Shown: positions 37,982-50,186 of the stretch, in pieces
Layout: each line of letters starts with the position of its first letter
How positions within the stretch are numbered: the stretch's first letter is position 1
DNA from: a virus
DNA length: 64,000 nucleotides
Virus record (IMG/VR): IMGVR_UViG_3300010430_000004
Coordinates: 64,001 to 128,000 of that record
Direction: 5' to 3' (one strand)
The notes under the pieces: generated by a model
Told to the model about the DNA's origin: nothing
Database searches by the model: none
What the model saw: the letters and a program-made list of their open reading frames with translations, nothing else
Made by a program: the position numbers and the translations under genes

Positions 37982-40014
37982 TGCTTTACTTAAAAGGACT
38001 ATCTATTGAAGGCTTCAGGTCTATCAGAGACAAGCAAGAGATAGATATAAATGCCTTAGGTAGAGCAACCCGAATAGCTGGGGTAAACAATGACACTGGA
38101 GGAGACTCTGGAGCAGGAAAGACTTCAGTAGCTGAAGCAATAGATTATCTTTTTAATGTCTCAAGTATTCCAGCTACAGTGCTAAAGTGCAGAGAATCAA
38201 CTGGTCCTATAGAAATTTGTGGGACCTTTCTTAATGAAAAATCTGAAGAAATTGTAATTAAAAGAAACAGCAAAGATGGTGTTTCAGTTAGCATCAACAA
38301 TGAGCTAGTTGAAGGTTTGTCTACTATTGTTGAAGAAAAGATTGATGAATTGATTTCTATTCCTAGAAAAATATTCAGAAAAATGTATCACAAGAAACAG
38401 AAAGAGTCTGGTTTTTTTCTTAAACTAACCCCTAAAGAGAGTTGGAACTTTTTAAACCAAGCCTGTGGTCTGGGTGAATGGCAGATTAAGCTAGAGAAAT
38501 TGGATATTCGCGTAAAGGAATTAAAAGATCTTTTATCTAAGAAAGAATACGAAATATCAGTAGACAAAGATTCTTTAAAAGACCTTGAAGAAAGAACCAA
38601 TTTTGTAGTACCTGAGAAACCTGTCTTAATTGATACCAAACATATTGAAAAAGAAATTAAGCAAATAGAAAGTACTGTTGAAAAGCTTATAGCTGAAAAA
38701 GATGAAACCATCTCTAAAATCCAGAAGCCGGAAAATGTGCCTACTGATTATGGCAGGCTTATTGAAAAGCTAGAAGAAGAGATAGGCAAACACGAAAATA
38801 GGCACCAAGACGTTTTAGATGAAGTAAATGCTAAATACAAAAAATTAAAAACTATTGTTGAATTTAAAGAAAAAGAATTAAATGACAAGAGATTCGCAGA
38901 ATCAAATGCCAATCATCTTAAAAAAGATATAAAAAAGAAAGTAACCGAACTCAAAATGCTTGGTGAAGAAGAATGTCCTACTTGTAATCAAGTATGGGTA
39001 GACCCTATTAAACAGGAAATTATTAACGAAAAGAAAACAGCATTAAAATCAGATAAAGCCACTTATGATAAATTAGTTAAAGAATCTGACGGACAAGAAG
39101 ATCTTGTTGAAAAAATAGCAAAAGGCAAGGCCAAACTAGAAGAGCTATCTGAGCCTGTAGTCAATAACGAGTTAGAGCATATAAACAAATATAAAGCAGC
39201 GATTAAAAAATACCAGGAAAAAATAAGCAAAGCCTCTTCAGAATATCAAACGGCCTACTCTGCATACTCTACTGAAATAGACAAAGCAAAGAATCACTTC
39301 AATGAGCTTATTGAATCTCAGAAATCCAAAGCCAGTTCTTTGGCCTCTCAGGTGCAGGAAAACGAGCTTAAGAAAGAATATTATGACAAAGCTGTTGAGA
39401 AAATAGAGTCAGATAAGGCCATTTTTGAAAATGCCAAACAAACCAGAAGAGATAAAATATTTGCTAAAGAAAAAGAACTAAGCGAATTAAACAAAGAAAT
39501 GGATCTAGCATACGAATCTAAGAAAGCCATCAGAAGCTATAACATGAAGGTTTTTCAAGAAACTTTAGATACTATAGCTTACAATGCCTCTAATATTCTA
39601 AATATGGTTCCAAATGCACAAAACTCAACAATAACTTTTGAGTCCTTTAAAGAGTTAAAGAACGGAAATATTAAGGAAGAAATTACAGCATTTATTAACA
39701 ATGGCAAGGGACAAAACGTAGATGTTAGATCGTTTTCTGGTGGAGAAGAAACATCTATTGATTTAGCCGTAGATCTAGCTGTTATTGACGTATTAGAGGA
39801 CAAATTCAACAAGGGTATAAATATCTTTCTTATGGATGAGCCCTTTAACGGCCTTGATGGGATATCTAAAGAAGGATATGTTGAAATACTTACTAATATT
39901 GATACCAATAAGAAACTAATAATCATGGACCATTCAGTAGAAGTTAAAGAAATGATTAGCGATACTATTATAGTAGAAAAATCAAACGATGTAAGCAGGA
40001 TTGTAAATGAGTAA
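37981..40014 (+). CDS. Rad50/SbcC-like (gp46) ABC ATPase
   Basis: IEGFRS, GAGKTS, CPTC zinc hook, FSGGE signature, MDEPF, IIMDH. Confidence 0.9.
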   Translation: MLYLKGLSIEGFRSIRDKQEIDINALGRATRIAGVNNDTGGDSGAGKTSVAEAIDYLFNVSSIPATVLKCRESTGPIEICGTFLNEKSEEIVIKRNSKDGVSVSINNELVEGLSTIVEEKIDELISIPRKIFRKMYHKKQKESGFFLKLTPKESWNFLNQACGLGEWQIKLEKLDIRVKELKDLLSKKEYEISVDKDSLKDLEERTNFVVPEKPVLIDTKHIEKEIKQIESTVEKLIAEKDETISKIQKPENVPTDYGRLIEKLEEEIGKHENRHQDVLDEVNAKYKKLKTIVEFKEKELNDKRFAESNANHLKKDIKKKVTELKMLGEEECPTCNQVWVDPIKQEIINEKKTALKSDKATYDKLVKESDGQEDLVEKIAKGKAKLEELSEPVVNNELEHINKYKAAIKKYQEKISKASSEYQTAYSAYSTEIDKAKNHFNELIESQKSKASSLASQVQENELKKEYYDKAVEKIESDKAIFENAKQTRRDKIFAKEKELSELNKEMDLAYESKKAIRSYNMKVFQETLDTIAYNASNILNMVPNAQNSTITFESFKELKNGNIKEEITAFINNGKGQNVDVRSFSGGEETSIDLAVDLAVIDVLEDKFNKGINIFLMDEPFNGLDGISKEGYVEILTNIDTNKKLIIMDHSVEVKEMISDTIIVEKSNDVSRIVNE

Positions 40015-40513
40015 ATTTAAAGAAGTAGTTGATTATTTTAACTCTGAGAATAGAAACGCGTATTTCCTAACTAGAGATTTTTCCAAGCGTTTTGGTGGAA
40101 CACTAAATTCTTATTCTACATATAAGTGTTATCTCAGATCAGCAGGATATATAAGAAAAGTTGACACTGGACTTTACCAAAAAGTAAAAAATATACCAGA
40201 AAACATTACAGTTTCTAAATTATTAAACGAAGCCTATCCTAAAGAACCTAGATATTTTGGTCGTGCTCCCTTTATGGCCCCTATTAAACTTACTCCAGCT
40301 TTGATTGAAATATTTAATACAAAGAGAATGGAAATGCCTAGAACACAGATAGTTAAAAATCTTTGGGTGTATATTAAAAAGCACAATCTTCAAGATCCTA
40401 AAAACAAAAGAATTATTATTTGTGATGCAAAACTTAGAAAAGTAATGGGTAAATCAAGCATTTCAATGTTTGAAATGGTAAAAGCACTTAGTAACCACTT
40501 GGGATTCAAATGA
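40007..40513 (+). CDS. SWIB/MDM2-domain protein with N-terminal winged-helix-like region
   Basis: MPRTQIVKNLWVYIKKHNLQDPKNKRIIICDAKLRKVMG...MFEMVKALSNHL matches the SWIB signature. Confidence 0.85.
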   Translation: MSKFKEVVDYFNSENRNAYFLTRDFSKRFGGTLNSYSTYKCYLRSAGYIRKVDTGLYQKVKNIPENITVSKLLNEAYPKEPRYFGRAPFMAPIKLTPALIEIFNTKRMEMPRTQIVKNLWVYIKKHNLQDPKNKRIIICDAKLRKVMGKSSISMFEMVKALSNHLGFK

Positions 40514-42213
40514 GCAAATATGAAAACAACCAGAGAGAAGACGTTCTTCGTGACCTTAAAGAGGCACTGAATGACGCTGAAGATTTACCCAGAGAATATA
40601 GAGCTGAGAGAATTATGCAAGTTTTTGACAAGCACTTGTTACTAAACAAAATACCACTACAGATCAATCATTATGATATTACAGCTATGGTGTCCAATGC
40701 TAAAGGCAACATGATTAATATGCCTAGTTATGTAGAAATCTCTAAAAAACAAGTAGGACTTCATGAAGTTAGATTTGTTGCTATTTTACAGTCACTTATA
40801 GGATATTTAAATAGAAAAGACGCATTGAAGAGAATGCCAGAAATTGAATTTACTAAAAGAAGGCAAAAATGAATTTTATTCATATTTATTTTTATGTTTC
40901 TTGCGTAATAAGTGGAAATGATATAAATCACACAGATGCTTTTAGAAATATTAAAAGTGAGCATTTAAATATGTCACTTGAAAAACATGTGTGCTCTAGA
41001 AGAGAAGGTGTTTCTATATATATACCACCATCGAATGTCAAGCATTTAACTCCAGTTCTTATAAGAACTGCAAAGTTTACTGCTGCAAATTCGTATACTG
41101 ATCTCAATAAGGGAAGCAAATTAGAAACAGGCGCATCAGAAGGGTGCAAAATAACAACAAAAGAAAGAGTATACATTTCAGCAGTTAGCTGTAAAAGTTA
41201 CAATTAAGGAGAATATAATGGGTAGAGGAAGAAGTGCAAAAAGTATTGAAGAAAAAATCAGTGAAGAATTGCCTGAGTTTTATGATAGTGTTCAATCAAT
41301 GAGCATTGAGCAATTAAAGGATCAGTTGGCTCGTGACGCTGGATATCGCGTAGAAAACCAAATAGCCAAAAAAGAAGATACTGAACTTAAAGCTGCTCGT
41401 GATCACGCCTCATTTCTGGCTGGCCCTTATAATGATGCTGAGAAAATGCTTAAACTTAAGGCTGAATTTGTTAAATCTCTTCTTGACGCTAAAGGTGGAT
41501 CAGTTGAGCAAAAAGACACAACCGAAAACGCATCTTAATAAAGGTCTTCAGGAAAACATCAAAAAGAGTGGTGCTTTACCTGAAGATTTTGCTATGGTTA
41601 ACATAGCTGTTCGCTATGATCAGATGAGGTGCTTTATTGCTCACCTTAGAATGATTAATATTGACGTTGAGCTTCCTCCAAAAGTAGAAGCTCTTGTTAA
41701 GTTTTATGAAAACAAGGGAAAATCGGAATGACTACTCTACAAAAACTAGATTATTGTATAGCAAAAACTGAGTATTCAGATTCTATGTTCGCTTGCCATT
41801 GGCTTAGTGTTACTGAAAGAACTATTAAAGCTTTTAGGGCTCTTTCTACTGAAGAACAAGAAAATCCAGAATTAAAAATAACAAAAAGAATAGGCCCTAT
41901 TTACAATTTTCTAAAACTGGCCGAAAAAGCAAATTTATTTAGAGACTATCATCCAGCCAATATTATGGGCGCTGATTTAGACGAATATACCAGAGATCCT
42001 GAAGATGATGACTGCTATCTTTCTCCATCTTTATTTGTAAAATATTTCGGAGAGTACCCTGGAGAATATTCTGAAGAAAGCTTGATGAACTATATACATA
42101 TTATTATTGTAAATTTTTGCAAAAAAGAGATAGAAATAGAAAAGCTTGAGTCAAAGATTAAGCTCATGGAAAATGAAAAAGAAATTAAAAGACTTAGAGA
42201 AGAAAACTCTTAA
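40510..42213 (+). other. Run of small hypothetical genes (40510-40872, 40869-41207, 41218-41538, one ending at 41731 with uncertain start, 41728-42213)
   Basis: Tightly packed same-strand ORFs; no recognisable motifs. Confidence 0.55.
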
Positions 42214-42227
42214 TTGAAGGGCTATTC

Positions 42228-42854
42228 GTGAGGGTTCTTGCTCTAGATATGTCAACTAAAACTGGATGGGCTATTCTAGAAATGGAAAAAGGCAAATGCG
42301 AGCTCATTGATTGTGGAGTTCTTAAACAAACTCCAGAACCTGAAGGCTATGAGTATCCCTTTAGTTATCTTAAATGGTCAAATATGTGCTTTGATCAGAT
42401 AGCTAAGATCTGGGACACTAAAGCAAACCCTGAAGTAGTCGTTATAGAAGAAACCGCTAAAGGTTCTAGAAACTCTTTTACTCAGAAAATTTTAGAATTC
42501 ATCCATTTCAGAATGGCGCTTTGGCTTCAAGACGAATGTGAGCAAAACCCTGAATTAAAATATAGATACTATTTAACTGAAGAATGGCGTAGAATAGCAG
42601 GGTGCCAACAAAACGCTGCTGAAAAGAAAAACAATGCTAAACGTAGCAGAGAAAAAGCCAAAGCCAAGAAAAAAGGAGAAGCTACTACAGTTATAAAAGA
42701 TAAAGAAGGCAACCGTTTAGGTAGGGTGACTAAAAAACACGTTAATGTTAGAAGATGTAACGAGGTTTTTGGCACAGAGTTCATACTCAAGGATGAAGAC
42801 AAGGCCGATGCTTGTTTGTTAGGGTATGCTTATTATAAGGAGAATTTTGAATGA
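42228..42854 (+). CDS. RuvC-like Holliday junction resolvase
   Basis: VLALDMSTKTGW, VVIEE, EWR, EDKADA. Confidence 0.75.
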   Translation: MRVLALDMSTKTGWAILEMEKGKCELIDCGVLKQTPEPEGYEYPFSYLKWSNMCFDQIAKIWDTKANPEVVVIEETAKGSRNSFTQKILEFIHFRMALWLQDECEQNPELKYRYYLTEEWRRIAGCQQNAAEKKNNAKRSREKAKAKKKGEATTVIKDKEGNRLGRVTKKHVNVRRCNEVFGTEFILKDEDKADACLLGYAYYKENFE

Positions 42855-42949
42855 CAATAACAATACCTGATTGGATGGGTTACGCATTTGTGGCTTATTT
42901 AGTTATTAGATGTTTTCTAACATATATGGATATAAAGAGTTATAAATAA
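42851..42949 (+). CDS. 32-aa single-TM peptide missing from the ORF track
   Basis: ATGA overlap; MTITIPDWMGYAFVAYLVIRCFLTYMDIKSYK. Confidence 0.4.
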   Translation: MTITIPDWMGYAFVAYLVIRCFLTYMDIKSYK

Positions 42950-42962
42950 TATAAGGTAAAGC

Positions 42963-43757
42963 ATGGATAAAGACAAAGTACTGCAAGCAGTAAATGACAT
43001 TAAGAAAAAGTTTGCGACTGAAAGTGTAGATGAAGAACAGGTGAAGGAAAGCTTCGTAGATAAGCTTAATGCCTTGCTACAATCTATTTTCGGAGATGAT
43101 GTTGATGCTGCCTATGAGCTTCTTGAAAAAGGCGACCTTTCTAATTATAGGAAGAGCTATATTAAACGATTAAGAAAATTTGTATATTCTAATCTGAAAA
43201 ATTTCTTCTACGCAGCGTTTATGTTCAGTATTGTAGCATTTCTAGTATCTGAAGCTGTTACTTTTTATGCCGTTGATGGAGTGGTAGAATCTAAGACGTA
43301 TATAAAGGCTATACTGACTGAAGTCAGTTTCATCTTTCTTTCCGGCTATGTAGCAACGACCAAATGGACCCAGGTAATAAGCAAATTACTCCTGGCTGGA
43401 GTATTTGGGCTTATGCTGTTTGTAATCTCTGCTGAAACTCTTAAACAGGGAGAAGCAGGAAGTCAAGAGTCTGCTATTATTGCCCAACAGATTATCACAC
43501 TAGAGACACAGATAAAAGAAAAAGAAGAATTGATTAAATACTATGTATCTATTGGTTGGCCAAGAAATGCCACAACTACTAGATTAGAGAAACAAAAATT
43601 AGTAGATAAGCTGCTATTACTAAAAGAAAAACAAGCAGCTGGAAAAAATGAAAGCGTTACTGACATTGAGCGTTATAAAAGTTATGGTAAGGCTTTCTTT
43701 AGAGTGATATTATTAATGATCAACTTACTTATTTCTAGAAGAGTGTTTAAGTTTTGA
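42963..43757 (+). CDS. Multi-TM membrane protein with coiled coil
   Basis: Three TM helices, coiled coil, final TM. Confidence 0.65.
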   Translation: MDKDKVLQAVNDIKKKFATESVDEEQVKESFVDKLNALLQSIFGDDVDAAYELLEKGDLSNYRKSYIKRLRKFVYSNLKNFFYAAFMFSIVAFLVSEAVTFYAVDGVVESKTYIKAILTEVSFIFLSGYVATTKWTQVISKLLLAGVFGLMLFVISAETLKQGEAGSQESAIIAQQIITLETQIKEKEELIKYYVSIGWPRNATTTRLEKQKLVDKLLLLKEKQAAGKNESVTDIERYKSYGKAFFRVILLMINLLISRRVFKF

Positions 43758-44343
43758 GAAATAGAAGTAGAATCAGGGGCTATTGTTTTTGTTGCGGTAC
43801 AGAAACTGCAAAATGGACCAATATGAAGGGTATGTCTTTTAGATGGAGGCATACTAGAAAAATACTAAGACATGATTTTTGGAATTATGTCTGTACTGTT
43901 TGTGGAGAATATGGTATGTGGAGTTGTGACATTGCAAAATTTGCCCAACTCATTAACATGGGCACTGGTGATCTTTCAGGAAATGATGACTCTCAGGGTA
44001 TGGACTACAAATATTTTAATAAGGGTGGAATATGAGCATCAAAGACAAAGAAGTCACTATTGAAGAATTTGCTAAATGGGCAAGTAATAATAAAAACTAT
44101 ACATGGTATCATGGAAAAGGCGGTGGCTTTGATTTTGGCGGCACTAATTGTCCCTTTATTAAATATATGCGCCCTGCATTGGATACTCGTGACATGAAGG
44201 TTTATAGAATAGAGTGTGACCGTAAAGAATATACTACAGATTTTAGAGACGAAGGCGAAGGTACTATCCTTGATATTTTATCCGCTAAACTAGAAAAAGC
44301 TATGAAAAACCACAACAAAGAAATGGAGAAAGAAAATGAGTAA
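43754..44343 (+). other. Two hypothetical genes (43754-44035 with CxxC...CxxC; 44032-44343)
   Basis: Coupled ORFs. Confidence 0.55.
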
Positions 44344-44968
44344 TGGAATAGTCAAACAATTCGCCACTTCTGATTGGCACGTTGGACATCATAATGTTAT
44401 TGATTTCTCTAACAGGCCCTTCAAGGATACTCGTGATATGCACAGAGTATTGATTAATAATTATAACTCTACCGTACCTGAAGATGGCATTTGCTATTTT
44501 GTAGGCGACATGGGCATGGGAAATCCACTTACTCTTAAACACGTTATTAAAGAGCTAAACGGTACTAAAATTTTAGTACTAGGAAATCACGACAAAGGAT
44601 TAAACAAGATGTACAGTCTAGGCTTTGACGTAGTAACGTTTGGAGCGATCTTTGATATTTGTGGTGAGCAAGTAACAATGACCCATTGCCCTCTAAGAGA
44701 CACATACAGAGAAGATACAAGCAAAATGAAAGAAGGCGAGCTTTGTCCTAACTGGCATGGTGAGCATAGAAAAAAATATAAAAAATATACCATTCCTAAT
44801 TGGGGCCAATATCATCTTCACGGCCATATCCACTCTCCAAACTCTGGTCAATCAAAAAAGATTGAAGGTAGACAAATGGATGTTGGAGTAGATGCTAACG
44901 GATATCGCCCAGTAAGTTGGAGTGCCATTGAATCATGGATAGCAAAGACTAAAAATGTCAAAGGGTAA
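44336..44968 (+). CDS. Calcineurin-like metallophosphoesterase (COG4186/AQ1575-like)
   Basis: SDWHVGH, NRPF, VGD, GNHD, THCP, LHGHIH, DVGVD. Confidence 0.85.
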   Translation: MSNGIVKQFATSDWHVGHHNVIDFSNRPFKDTRDMHRVLINNYNSTVPEDGICYFVGDMGMGNPLTLKHVIKELNGTKILVLGNHDKGLNKMYSLGFDVVTFGAIFDICGEQVTMTHCPLRDTYREDTSKMKEGELCPNWHGEHRKKYKKYTIPNWGQYHLHGHIHSPNSGQSKKIEGRQMDVGVDANGYRPVSWSAIESWIAKTKNVKG

Positions 44969-45191
44969 TTTAAGCGTTTTTGCTGCCAATAAAACAAACT
45001 ATAATGATGGAATTAATAAAAGAGAAGATTTTATTACTAGAAGATGGTCAGCATATAGATTAGAAAAATTTGTAGGATTGAGAAGCTTTACTGATGCAGA
45101 CTCCTACAATGATATGAGAAGTAATGGGTTCGCTTATCCTCTTGATGAACACAATCATATAGAAGCTAGAAATAAGAAAGACAAAAAATGA
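44955..45191 (+). CDS. Small paralogue 1 of a three-gene family
   Basis: Core KTNYNDGINKREDFITRRWSAYRLEKFVGLRSFTDADSYND. Confidence 0.75.
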   Translation: MSKGNLSVFAANKTNYNDGINKREDFITRRWSAYRLEKFVGLRSFTDADSYNDMRSNGFAYPLDEHNHIEARNKKDKK

Positions 45192-45406
45192 GTAGGACTA
45201 TAGTTAATTTTGGAAAAAAAGCAAACTATAATCCTAAAGTAAACACTTCAAGCCTTAGCATTAGAGAAAAATGGCACAAGTTTAGACACGAAACATACAT
45301 AGGAATTGGCAATTTTTCTAATACTGATAATTATAATAGTGGAGTTTCAGAAAATACGAATATAAAAGAAAACAAAAGTTCAGAAATGGTAAACTTAAAT
45401 GAATGA
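45188..45406 (+). CDS. Small paralogue 2 of a three-gene family
   Basis: Core KANYNPKVNTSSLSIREKWHKFRHETYIGIGNFSNTDNYNS. Confidence 0.75.
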   Translation: MSRTIVNFGKKANYNPKVNTSSLSIREKWHKFRHETYIGIGNFSNTDNYNSGVSENTNIKENKSSEMVNLNE

Positions 45407-45614
45407 TGATTACATAAACAATATAATAGTAAAGACTAAATATTCTTATTCTCTTAATGATAGAAGTTTTCACATGGAAACCCACTGGTCTAATTATTGT
45501 ATGGAAGATTTCGTAAGTGTAGCTGGATTTACTAATACTGAAAATTACGATGAAATTGAAACAGAAGATATAGCCACGGATATAGAAGACCATGATCATT
45601 ATAGCGACGAGTGA
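45399..45614 (+). CDS. Small paralogue 3 of a three-gene family
   Basis: Core KTKYSYSLNDRSFHMETHWSNYCMEDFVSVAGFTNTENYDE. Confidence 0.75.
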   Translation: MNDDYINNIIVKTKYSYSLNDRSFHMETHWSNYCMEDFVSVAGFTNTENYDEIETEDIATDIEDHDHYSDE

Positions 45615-46290
45615 TACTCATTATAGGCACGAAAAAGTGGAGCTAGCTCCAGGTGATGTGTTTATTCATGCCGGAGACAACAACGCTGGTGGACCAAGCT
45701 GTGCTCGTGATTTTATTGAATGGGTTGGCGAACTTAATTACAAACATAAAATAATTATTGCAGGCAACCATGATAATGCCTTTGCCGATGATCCCAAGTA
45801 TATTGAGCAATTATGTAAAGATAATGGGGTCATATACCTAAACGATTCTGGAGTAGAGATTGATGGGGTTAAGTTCTGGGGAAGCCCATGGACACCTAAG
45901 TATGGATTAGACATTTATGTATTTAACGCTGCACGTTCAGTAACCGAACAAGCATTCTTAGGTTTTAAATATCCATTAATAGAAGAAAAGTGGGCTCTTA
46001 TCCCTGAAGATACTGACGTATTGATTACCCACGGCCCAGCTTATGATGTTCTTGACGTAAACAAAAAAGGCATACCTTGTGGGTGCGTAGAGTTGAGAAA
46101 AGCCATAGAAAAAATAAAACCACAGGTTCATATCTTTGGTCACATTCACGAAGGCGCTGGAGATACTAAAATAAATGAGACTGAATACTATAACGTGGCT
46201 TACTTTGGTAAGATTACAAGGCACTCTCGTAACGAATACACTATTGAAAAAAATCCAGCAAGCATGATTTATATTGACGATAATAAATAA
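45592..46290 (+). CDS. Metallophosphoesterase, MPPED2/239FB-like
   Basis: SDTH, IHAGD, IAGNHD, GSPWTP, LITHGP, CGC, HIFGHIHEG. Confidence 0.85.
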   Translation: MIIIATSDTHYRHEKVELAPGDVFIHAGDNNAGGPSCARDFIEWVGELNYKHKIIIAGNHDNAFADDPKYIEQLCKDNGVIYLNDSGVEIDGVKFWGSPWTPKYGLDIYVFNAARSVTEQAFLGFKYPLIEEKWALIPEDTDVLITHGPAYDVLDVNKKGIPCGCVELRKAIEKIKPQVHIFGHIHEGAGDTKINETEYYNVAYFGKITRHSRNEYTIEKNPASMIYIDDNK

Positions 46291-46296
46291 TTGAAT

Positions 46297-46639
46297 CTCC
46301 AGTCTGGACGGTGCGGTGTCGAAAGCCCACGTTCTTCCTGGACCGAGGGTTATGTGCGAGGCATATTAAAATGGTTGCTAAGATCTGCCCTTTACTTGTG
46401 GTATAGTCCATGAACTTACCACAGCCCCTAGAGATAGGTAGCTCCTTGATCTAGTAGAGGCTCTGCAAGCCTACACTGTTACTAGACGCGTCTAGACAGT
46501 TGTTTTTAAGCCCTATTATGGGCAGAACAAGCAGCGCATGGTGGATGTAGGAAACGCCACTAGGAGTCACAATCCTCTCAGCAGCTCAATGATACGGGGC
46601 AACAGCTGGAAAACTGTGAGGTTGCGGCTCGCTTTTTTT
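46297..46639 (+). ncRNA. Candidate large structured non-coding RNA (~340 nt), class unassigned
   Basis: Longest ORF-free gap in the window; 145/300 G+C over 46321-46620; about ten helices including a GNRA loop; G-U pairs favour the + strand; ends in a T7 run. Boundaries approximate. Confidence 0.7.
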
Positions 46640-46706
46640 ATTCAGCTCAAATCTGAGCCGAGCAAAATCTTCAATAATTTCAATGACTTTATTCTCTAAA
46701 AATTTA

Positions 46707-46736
46707 CTAGCATTTTTTAATAATCCATGTTATATT
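46707..46736 (+). promoter_or_regulatory. TAGC-class promoter: CTAGCA-N18-TATATT
   Basis: One of four copies. Confidence 0.7.
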
Positions 46737-46757
46737 TAACTCAACAAAGGAAATAAA

Positions 46758-46973
46758 ATGGTTTATTTAATAGTTGTAGGCTTAATATGTACCACAGGCA
46801 CTATTGATTGTTATTCAAAAATAAATAACAAAGCCGAGAAAATAAACGTTACTAGAGAAATGACCAAAAAAGAGTGTGTAGAGAAGACAATGATTCTTAG
46901 AAAATATATAACAGACAATAAATTAGGAAAACCTATAGTTGTTTGTAGAATAAACTGGGAGAAGGTACAATGA
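46758..46973 (+). CDS. Small Cys-containing exported protein
   Basis: Hydrophobic N-terminus; four Cys; AAGGA RBS. Confidence 0.55.
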   Translation: MVYLIVVGLICTTGTIDCYSKINNKAEKINVTREMTKKECVEKTMILRKYITDNKLGKPIVVCRINWEKVQ

Positions 46974-47386
46974 ATCCAAGAACGCCTAAATTTTTTAACA
47001 ATGGAATTGAAGTCAAACACATTTCTGAGAAAAAAGGCAGAGGTGTATTTGCTACTCGTACTATTAAAAAAGGTGAAGTATTTGAAATAGCGCCCTGCCT
47101 AATAGTGCCCCATGATGAGAGTGAACTAGTAAACGACACTTTTTTAGGTTTTTATACCTATTCTCCTCCAGGGCCAACTAAGGATGAGGATGAAGAAACA
47201 TACGATGAGTGCTCAATTATTGCTCTTGGTTATGGATCTTTATATAATACTAACAAGAACCCAAACGCTGACTATGCTGTTTATTATAACCATGCTAAAT
47301 ACTTTGCGCTAAGAACTATTAAAAAGGGCGAAGAAATATTAATAAACTATGGTTGGGATGAGTCTTATACAAAGGATTTTGAATGA
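46970..47386 (+). CDS. SET-domain protein (lysine methyltransferase fold)
   Basis: KGRGVFATRTIKKGEV, GSLYNT...PNA, FALRTIKKGEEILINYG; the usual NHS motif reads NTN. Confidence 0.85.
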   Translation: MNPRTPKFFNNGIEVKHISEKKGRGVFATRTIKKGEVFEIAPCLIVPHDESELVNDTFLGFYTYSPPGPTKDEDEETYDECSIIALGYGSLYNTNKNPNADYAVYYNHAKYFALRTIKKGEEILINYGWDESYTKDFE

Positions 47387-47419
47387 AAAAGCTAAGCCAT
47401 TGGTGGCGTTGTAGTTGGT

Positions 47420-50186
47420 GTGGATTTGCCACAAATGATTCGGTGCATATTTGCAAGGGGAAATGATATGGATGTTTATGTGGTTACTTATGGATATGAC
47501 TATGAAAGCACTTCTGTTCTTGGAGTATACTCTACTGAACAAAAAGCCCAAGCAGCAGTAGAAGATATGGTTGGTAATTATTATGATGAAGTGAAATGGT
47601 ACACAGACTATATGGCTAAAGAGTATAGCAGTGAATCAGACAGCACTGGTAGAAGATTTGAAATTGAACAATGTCAGTTAGATGACCAATATGAAGATGA
47701 TTTATTCGAGGACTAATTATGTTATACGGACTATATATGGAAAAAGAAACAGATAATATTGCTATAAAGCGCACAGCAAACTCTATTGAAGCTTTCAATC
47801 ACACCCACTATCATAAGGTTTGGAAGGCTAGAAGAGAAATTGGTGATAATCTAGGAAATCTTGATCAACCAAACCATTCGCTTGTGGGTAAAAAGCTCAG
47901 AAATCGCAAAACAGGAGATATTTATAATGTGGAGTCTGTTAAGAAACAGTTCTATGCTGGATGGTATTTTGGAGCGCTGCTTGAGTGTAACAACAGTCAT
48001 TGTTTTGCATGGTTCCACAACGAAAGCAGTATAGATAGTATTGTTGAAAAGCATTGTATAGAATTTTGGGAAGATTTTGAGGAAGTGAAATGAAAACACT
48101 GAAAAAAATTAAACTAACTTCAGATTGTGGAACAATGGCATGGACCGTTGATTTGCATGAAGTCGCCCACGATAGGGCCTGTTACTATTCCAAAAAAGAC
48201 AGCGACAATGCCACTTATGAAGATGAATATGAATTTACCTGTGAAGACGACTACGAAGCTGTTGATTGGTTACAAAACAATATGGACTGGTATAATTGTA
48301 GATCATTAAAGATGATTATGAATTTTGAAAAACCTTTAAACGAAGTAGATATTGACGATTGGGAGATAGTATAATGGGCTTAGATATAGATGGAATAAAA
48401 ATTATCAGAGAAGGAAAAACCGATGACACTGTTTTTGTATACGAAGGTTTTGAACGGTCCCTTAAAGATGAAGAAATAGTAAGTCTTGATTATGATGACG
48501 AAAATTGGGAATGCGTAGCTGACGGAATCTCTATGTCTTATGGATCATATAATGGATTTAGAAGAGTGCTGGCTGAAGCAGCCCTAAACACAAGTGTAGA
48601 AAATGTATGGAAATTGGCTGGAAATCTCAAAGATAGTGAACCTTATCCTTCTCCAATTTTTCATATACTTAATTTTGCAGACAATGAAGGTTTTATAGGC
48701 CCATCGGCTGTAAAAGAATTAGATAGTTATTTTGATGAAAGACTTGAATATCTTAAGGAAGAGCTTTCGGATGATGAATACTATATGCACAAGGTTATTA
48801 GTTTAGCTGAATGTATTAAAGAAACTGCCAAAGAAAATGGCTACTTGAGGTTTGGATAATGGGTAGAAAATTATCAAGGGCCTTGAACCCTAAACATGGT
48901 TGGCGAGAAGCTTTAGAAGATCTTAAGGATTTTTTATGGTACGACCCAGCTAGTTGGTGTCGATCAAAAATTGAAATGCTTCAGAGAATGGTATATTGGG
49001 GCTGGCACATGAGATGGAGTTGGGACTTTGACGCTAGTACTATTTATGAAATGCTTTACAGAAAATTAGACAGAATTTACTGCTGTATGAGAGATCATTC
49101 CCATTGTGTATGGAACAGCAGCATCGAACAGCCTAGAATGAGAGAACTAAGAGAAGCTAGAGAAATCGCTAAAAGACTATGGGAAGATGACTATGATATG
49201 GCAGCTTTCTATGAGACTGAGGAAAAATACGGCAAGCTTAAATCATGGACTGAAAAAATTCCAAACAAACCTCTCTATAGATATCATTCTTTATGGGGAA
49301 ATGACGAAGAAGTTGATAAGAAAGCTATAGTGTTTAATCGTAGAAGAGATAAGCATTGGAGAGAAGTAAAAAAGCTTCATAAAGATCGTTTATTTTATTT
49401 GCTAAACAAAAACGTAGAGTATTGGTGGGACTGATGATTCATCATTATCTTTATAAAAGCTTTTCAAATAAGACAAAAATAGCATACGTTAAGTTGACTT
49501 GTACTGGAGAAAAATATGTCTATGACGCTAAGGCCAGAAATGGTTGGTCGAATACCCCAAGTAGGGTTGCTCCAGTAACTACTAGTGCTAAATTAACTAC
49601 TTGCCCATTGTGCAAGAAAAAACTAGTAGACAAGTTAGAAAGCCAATTAAAGGAGTTGAGATAATGGAAATTTTATTTTTCATCATTCCAGTGTGGATTC
49701 TTATATTTGTAATGCTTGTTGTTTACAGCATTAGCAAGAAAAGATTAAAAGCATTCTTATTGCAGTTCTTAATATATGAGGTATTTTTTGCATTATTAGC
49801 CACGGTAGCTTTTCCAGTTTTTGGGACATTCTTTGGATTTACTTCTTATACTGCTGCTGCAATGTTTTGTGCTTCTGACTTATTAGATTGGGTCAAAAAA
49901 ATAGGAGAGAAAAATGAAAAGTAAAACTACAATACTATTATCTATACTGCCTTTAGTATTTGGATACTTGATTCTTATAGGGGTCAGCAATTCAGATGGG
50001 ATGGAAGCTTTTAAAAAATCTGAACAAAAAACAGCAACTTGTAGCCTCAAAGGATTTAAAGGTTTTCCAGAAAACGTAACCGGACCAGTTACCCTAGAGT
50101 TGGCCAAATTAATCACGGTTATGGTATCCAACGATGATGAAAGTTTAGAAATTACCGTAGCAAAGAAAAGGTGCGAAATCAAATGA
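47420..50186 (+). other. Run of small hypothetical genes (ending 47716, 48093, 48374, 48859, 49434, 49664, 49924, 50186)
   Basis: Coupled ORFs; several acidic or membrane-type; no recognisable family. Confidence 0.55.

Follow-up and report, generated by a model that had tools for sequence, protein, structure and literature searches.

Large lytic phages, among them the T4-like phages, carry hypervariable plasticity slots that hold small, lineage-specific ORFans. The locus described here, in which three small genes lie between the genes for two phosphoesterases (A upstream and B downstream), resembles these slots in having conserved flanks around a short interval that changes between close relatives, and in the character of the genes themselves, which are small, lack a family and evolve fast; a homing endonuclease is encoded nearby in one relative. 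It differs from the T4-like slots in that one occupant has been amplified to three diverged tandem copies that are of opposite net charge. Acb2, Tad1 and Tad2, which are sponges for nucleotide immune signals, offer a second comparison. They too are small phage proteins, and the proteins of our locus, which share a core with conserved aromatic, Lys and Asn positions, have a plausible role beside a putative cyclic-nucleotide phosphodiesterase. This is an analogy of genomic context, however, and the three proteins have no sequence similarity to any solved chain in the copy of the PDB that we searched. A third comparison is with the acidic DNA-mimic anti-restriction proteins Ocr, ArdA and Arn, whose very high negative charge is matched by the third of the small proteins and by a homologue in a sister phage. 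Here the differences are that two of the three proteins are basic, that there is no sequence match to the DNA mimics, and that the acidic tail of the third protein is partly a by-product of gene overlap.

The locus was found in a 64,000-nucleotide stretch of DNA, referred to below as the window, which corresponds to bases 64001-128000 of an IMG/VR virus record that is 168,536 bp long and has a completeness rating of 100%. Nearly all long ORFs of the window are on the + strand. They include genes for baseplate proteins, a helicase, SbcCD-like nuclease subunits and ribonucleotide reductase, which identify the source as a large tailed phage; it belongs to an uncultured group of tailed phages of ~170 kb. 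The small genes form part of a putative co-transcribed block of eight abutting or overlapping genes (Table 1) that encodes, in order, a 264-aa membrane protein, a 93-aa Cys-rich ORF, a 103-aa ORF, phosphoesterase A, the three paralogues and phosphoesterase B. A few kilobases from the paralogues the phage also encodes a SWIB/MDM2-domain protein (40007-40513; PF02201, E = 1.6e-27) and, a few kilobases away on their other side, a SET-domain protein (46970-47386; PF00856, E = 1.6e-15), both of which are eukaryote-type chromatin domains. A 98-aa ORF at 47420-47716 matches DUF7336 (PF24024, E = 3.6e-9) and phrog_3002.

Table 1. Features of the locus, in positions of the window
Feature	Positions	Strand	Length and properties	Shared core	Basis or nearest solved relative
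Putative co-transcribed block	42963-46290	+	eight abutting or overlapping genes		ORF layout
Phosphoesterase A	44336-44968	+	210 aa; calcineurin-like (phrog_547)		aq_1665, PDB 1xm7
Paralogue 1	44955-45191	+	78 aa; pI 9.5; net charge +3.7; tail end RNKKDKK	44991-45113	
Paralogue 2	45188-45406	+	72 aa; pI 9.4; net charge +2.7	45218-45340	
Paralogue 3	45399-45614	+	71 aa; pI 4.1; net charge -15.1	45432-45554	
Phosphoesterase B	45592-46290	+	232 aa; metallophosphoesterase (PF00149, phrog_1649)		MPPED2, PDB 3rl4, E = 2.7e-34

The small genes are packed tightly against each other and against their neighbours. The start of copy 1 overlaps the 3' end of the phosphoesterase A gene by 14 nt, the junction between copies 1 and 2 is an ATGA in which the start of copy 2 overlaps the stop of copy 1, copies 2 and 3 overlap by 8 nt, and copy 3 overlaps the phosphoesterase B gene by 23 nt. 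Because the frame of copy 2 differs from that of copies 1 and 3, and because every unit starts with an ATG (Met) of its own, we conclude that these are separate genes and not the remains of a broken repeat protein. Two independent metagenome contigs from other samples were 100% identical to the window over the paralogue stretch, which rules out an assembly artefact; the same identity left no polymorphism for a test of selection.

The overlapping starts and stops suggest translational coupling, and we infer that the small genes are co-expressed with the phosphoesterases in one operon. A simple scan for promoters gave no signal above background (29 sites, where shuffles predict 29.5). Nor was there clear enrichment of a Bacteroidota-type promoter pattern, with seven matches against 3.3 expected and 6 of 100 shuffles reaching seven, and none of the seven was close to the operon. 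Simple scans likewise found no recognisable ribosome-binding signal for the small genes, and an Rfam search of 40000-50000 returned no family. Within the block there is a single terminator-like site on the + strand, at 43313-43328, which falls in the first gene, that of the membrane protein, and a second terminator-like hairpin lies past phosphoesterase B at 46616-46632. Just beyond this hairpin, at 46699, is the exact end of both metagenome contigs, L004 and L005, which are 100% identical to the window; the assembly may have broken there at a junction that is variable or repeated.

The original prediction was that the three genes are tandem paralogues of ~70 aa that share an ungapped 41-aa core, and it is borne out by the ORFs, the pairwise scores and the comparison of invariant columns with shuffles. 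The translations agree with a core at the three places given in Table 1; all seven positions proposed as invariant (K1, Y4, N9, W19, E25, F33 and Y39) are present in the three cores, and the conservative positions listed alongside them are correct on translation. Smith-Waterman local scores between the proteins were 86, 105 and 76, compared to about 27 +/- 5 for composition-matched shuffles (z 8.8-17), and the scores were reached in 0 of 2000 and 0 of 500 shuffles. The seven invariant columns mark the best ungapped three-way window of 41 aa, and in 300 shuffles the number of such columns averaged 3.1 and never exceeded five. Similarity continues, with one-residue indels, for a few residues on the N-terminal side of the core, and the alignment upholds the proposed contrast between a fixed-spacing core conserved at the protein level and divergent tails. 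Significant pairwise similarity, separate starts and stops and head-to-tail order are what a tandem paralogous family should display, and at the level of sequence comparison these genes are firmly shown to be true, diverged tandem paralogues of a nearly orphan family.

How strongly selection has acted on these proteins is a separate matter. The predicted divergence of the DNA is real, in that the cores are only 50-54% identical in DNA and 27-34% identical in protein, but the accompanying claim that selection acts on the protein gained only modest support. By the Nei-Gojobori method, dN was 0.63-0.79 and dS about 0.95-1.7, the latter from ~22 synonymous sites that are near saturation, and the resulting dN/dS of 0.4-0.8 among the copies is not very informative on such sites. 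Constraint sits on a few positions and is not spread across the protein. A ratio moderately below 1 on saturated sites may be compatible with weak constraint or with partial decay of copies 1 and 2, and, together with the negative scans for promoters and ribosome-binding signals, it could be taken to mean that these two copies are drifting, functionless duplicates or that the ORFs are untranslated. We consider this very unlikely. All three frames are intact, their start positions are conserved, seven residues are invariant despite heavy divergence of the DNA, and the genes are compactly packed with ATGA-type overlaps, whereas drift at such divergence would have introduced stops or indels into the core.

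We scanned loci encoding relatives of the flanking phosphoesterases in all frames with an HMM of the family and found one homologue, a 73-aa ORF at L007:3799-4020 on a 49-kb viral contig of a sister phage (HMM E = 4.7e-8 among 7631 ORFs; pairwise z ~8 to each paralogue). It is the single copy in that contig, has a net charge of -14.4, like that of copy 3, and lies directly upstream of the phosphoesterase B orthologue, which it overlaps; copy 3 is its positional counterpart. In an alignment of the four sequences, the K, the N, the W and the last Y are still invariant and most of the other aromatic positions stay aromatic. The conserved pattern reads K, [YF], N, W, [YF] and Y; in the three window copies the E and the F are retained as well.

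The presence of a single copy in the sister phage indicates that the ancestral function could be performed without three different subunits. This bears on the suggestion, made in the original prediction, that the proteins form a hetero-oligomer, in its strict form an obligate assembly in which acidic copy 3 is joined by the two basic copies. Their net charges are complementary (+3.7 and +2.7 vs. -15), and the tight coupling of the genes favours near-equimolar synthesis. The sister phage, however, has an acidic copy by itself, so the fold functions without basic partners, and any heteromer would be a derived feature that is unlikely to be ancestral. We therefore regard an obligate hetero-oligomer as quite improbable.

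No known family had been recognised for these proteins in the original prediction, and this held in Pfam, PHROG, NCBIfam, PDB and large profile searches. The three paralogues had no matches in Pfam at E up to 1 and none in NCBIfam, and the sole PHROG match was that of copy 3 to phrog_12532, at E = 0.13. The sister-phage copy matched only PF12564 in Pfam (E = 0.048; 14 bits against a cut-off of 25). A word-seeded search of 5.8 billion clusters returned only the three paralogues themselves and, with a four-sequence profile, only these and the sister-phage copy. A HMMER profile search of 1.84 billion representative proteins yielded no credible relative beyond the three paralogues; it used the three-sequence profile, against which the sister-phage copy would score at about E = 0.01, and further members may thus fall slightly short of the cut-off. 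Among 50,697 phage records, neither the region nor copy 1 was matched by blastn (word size 11) or tblastn, and a scan of viral contigs with a degenerate pattern from the three-sequence alignment found nothing.

Two long proteins, P0004 and P0005, came up in the HMMER search with E-values of 6e-6 and 3e-4 and were rejected as homologues. Both contain tandem repeats of ~94 residues, in each of which an E-x-F-V-S-G-G-x-F-T-E motif bears a weak resemblance to the latter half of the family core, and their scores are sums over 7-13 weak repeats, which inflated the E-values. Their best single stretch scores 12-14 bits (library E-value >3000), and all that they have in common with the family is a short E-x-F-V-x-G-x-F-T motif.

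Searches for a structural relative were equally unproductive. We compared a three-sequence profile (A1) and a four-sequence profile (A2) with every chain in the PDB copy, which takes in any solved nucleotide sponges there, at E up to 10 and obtained only the ZZ zinc finger of p300 (PDB 6ds6), at E = 0.8 with the three-sequence profile. The 37-residue, gap-free alignment to this domain matches the N, W and E positions, but a ZZ finger has eight Cys/His ligands in a C-x2-C pattern, and the aligned columns of the paralogues are not Cys or His; copies 1 and 2 contain no Cys at all and copy 3 contains one. The match was gone with the four-sequence profile, and we treat it as a chance match. AlphaFold2 models from the three- and four-sequence alignments had a mean pLDDT of 50.6 and 52.9 and a pTM of about 0.2, and their only recurrent feature was a low-confidence central helix around the invariant Trp. 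Models of this quality are too poor for a fold search, since low-confidence models give meaningless matches. Judged by these profile comparisons, the family is new, with no characterised family matching it.

In three lineages the gene order is the same, namely the 264-aa membrane protein, the Cys-rich ORF, phosphoesterase A, a slot and phosphoesterase B. Phosphoesterase A is 77-82% identical across two sister lineages and phosphoesterase B 59-65% identical across sister lineages. What the slot contains is different each time: three paralogues in the window, one homologue in the sister phage L007, and four small ORFs in L089, which keeps both enzymes (A 77% and B 65% identical). The four L089 ORFs were tried as remote homologues, and pairwise shuffles and hhalign found them unrelated to the family or to each other. 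In L090, from a more distant phage, phosphoesterase A is followed directly by another metallophosphoesterase with no small gene between them. Flavobacterium phage immuto encodes both enzyme types, separated by unrelated genes, and has no family member. The family is also absent from ~80 other loci with phosphoesterase B relatives, and both phosphoesterases are widespread in phages that lack it. On this record of gene content, the region between the phosphoesterases is a hypervariable accessory slot with fast turnover, in which the number of small genes is 0, 1, 3 or 4; the triplication is a lineage-specific event.

A further variable position immediately precedes phosphoesterase A. In the window it is occupied by the 103-aa ORF (44032-44343), in L007 by a gene for a LAGLIDADG homing endonuclease (L007:2565-3191) and in L088 by a 90-aa ORF (L088:1613-1885), and in L089 it is empty.

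The location of the small genes between both enzymes, with starts and stops that overlap, raises the question of whether the whole cassette is one unit in which the small proteins are dedicated partners of the phosphoesterases, as inhibitor, activator, specificity or metal-delivery subunits. That a family member adjoins phosphoesterase B on its upstream side, overlapping it, in two lineages would agree with such a role. These are nevertheless the only two lineages in which the family and phosphoesterase B occur together, which is not the co-occurrence expected of an obligate subunit. The retention of both enzymes in L089, with unrelated ORFs in the slot, weakens the case for a required partnership, and the same direction is indicated by L090, by immuto and by the ~80 other phosphoesterase B loci. 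A dedicated partnership thus appears unlikely, and the small proteins are probably not obligate subunits of the phosphoesterases.

One further feature that might seem to favour metal delivery has a different origin. The proteins encoded directly before phosphoesterase B have ends that are rich in D, H and C and look like metal ligands: HDHYSDE in copy 3, DEDCDDDCCD in the L007 copy and DEDCSD in the L089 gene, which is unrelated to the family. In copy 3 these last seven residues are encoded within the 23-nt overlap with the phosphoesterase B gene (45592-45614), and the corresponding overlaps are at L007:3989-4020 and L089:2850-2905. The overlapping frame encodes the conserved N terminus of the enzyme, M-x-I-[IV]-A-T-S-D-T-H, and the likeness of these ends, as well as their metal-ligand appearance, results from overlap with this N terminus in another frame. 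As a general caution, similar Asp/Cys/His-rich C termini in unrelated small proteins can arise from overlap with a conserved downstream gene start.

The overlap also qualifies what had been predicted about the tails. They do differ as described, copy 1 ending in a basic stretch and copy 3 being acidic, but the extreme end of copy 3 is partly an overlap artefact, with its acidity continuing for ~17 residues further upstream, outside the overlap. Charge of this order (-15 in 71 aa, and -14.4 in 73 aa in the sister phage) would suit nucleic-acid mimics that block a DNA-binding host protein, e.g., a restriction enzyme, and the Lys/Arg-rich ends of the basic copies could then point to a different, possibly nucleic-acid-binding, role for these. 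Much of the negative charge, however, is in a tail that is probably disordered and whose last residues are a by-product of the overlap, and the occurrence of the same domain in acidic and basic copies is ill-suited to a surface-charge mimic. Mimicry by the acidic members is accordingly highly doubtful in our view.

The structure nearest to phosphoesterase A, aq_1665, is itself uncharacterised. Phosphoesterase B is clearly related to MPPED2, which is a cyclic-nucleotide phosphodiesterase, and this likeness suggests a cyclic-nucleotide substrate for the phage enzyme; a literature search on MPPED2-like phage enzymes returned nothing relevant. By analogy with Acb2, Tad1 and Tad2, the small proteins might be sponges for nucleotide immune signals that complement signal-degrading phosphodiesterases on either side. 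The many conserved aromatics of the core, together with its Lys and Asn, would be in keeping with ligand capture of this kind, and the small size of the proteins is compatible with oligomeric sponges. Yet the argument is one of neighbourhood, and with either profile no PDB chain was similar by sequence at E up to 10 save the ZZ match that was subsequently lost, so that we assign the sponge reading only a very slight probability. A broader version, in which the proteins are binders of immune signals or specificity factors for the phosphodiesterases, the signals or targets captured by the acidic copy differ from those of the basic ones, and all of them make up a multi-layer counter-defence cassette with both metallophosphodiesterases, also seems very improbable.

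Our preferred reading, which we hold tentatively and which as a whole falls somewhat short of an even chance, is that the three genes are tandem duplicates in an accessory slot that encode small stoichiometric binders of host or defence components. Its parts are not equally secure. To go by their sequences, the three genes are protein-coding and arose when one small gene was duplicated in tandem. The ancestral arrangement was probably that of the sister phage, with one acidic copy immediately before phosphoesterase B, in which case copy 3 would have kept the ancestral position and charge, and copies 1 and 2 would be basic derivatives. Each protein would consist of an aromatic-rich N-terminal mini-domain of ~50 residues and a short, unrelated, charged tail, with the mini-domain as a scaffold and the divergent tails setting target specificity. 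Duplication and divergence in charge may then have allowed such proteins to bind more kinds of host or defence component. From the small size and orphan status of the proteins, the rapid turnover of the slot and its neighbourhood of non-essential genes, one of which encodes the MPPED2-like phosphodiesterase, we infer a role as accessory binders in host takeover or counter-defence.

As a phenomenon, the lineage-specific tandem duplication of an ORFan in a slot between conserved genes is ordinary. Small orphan phage genes in variable slots are nonetheless a rich source of anti-defence and host-takeover proteins, and three copies with opposite charges make this locus a reasonable candidate for a function in the arms race between phage and host. 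If a structure were solved, the family would be a new fold family.
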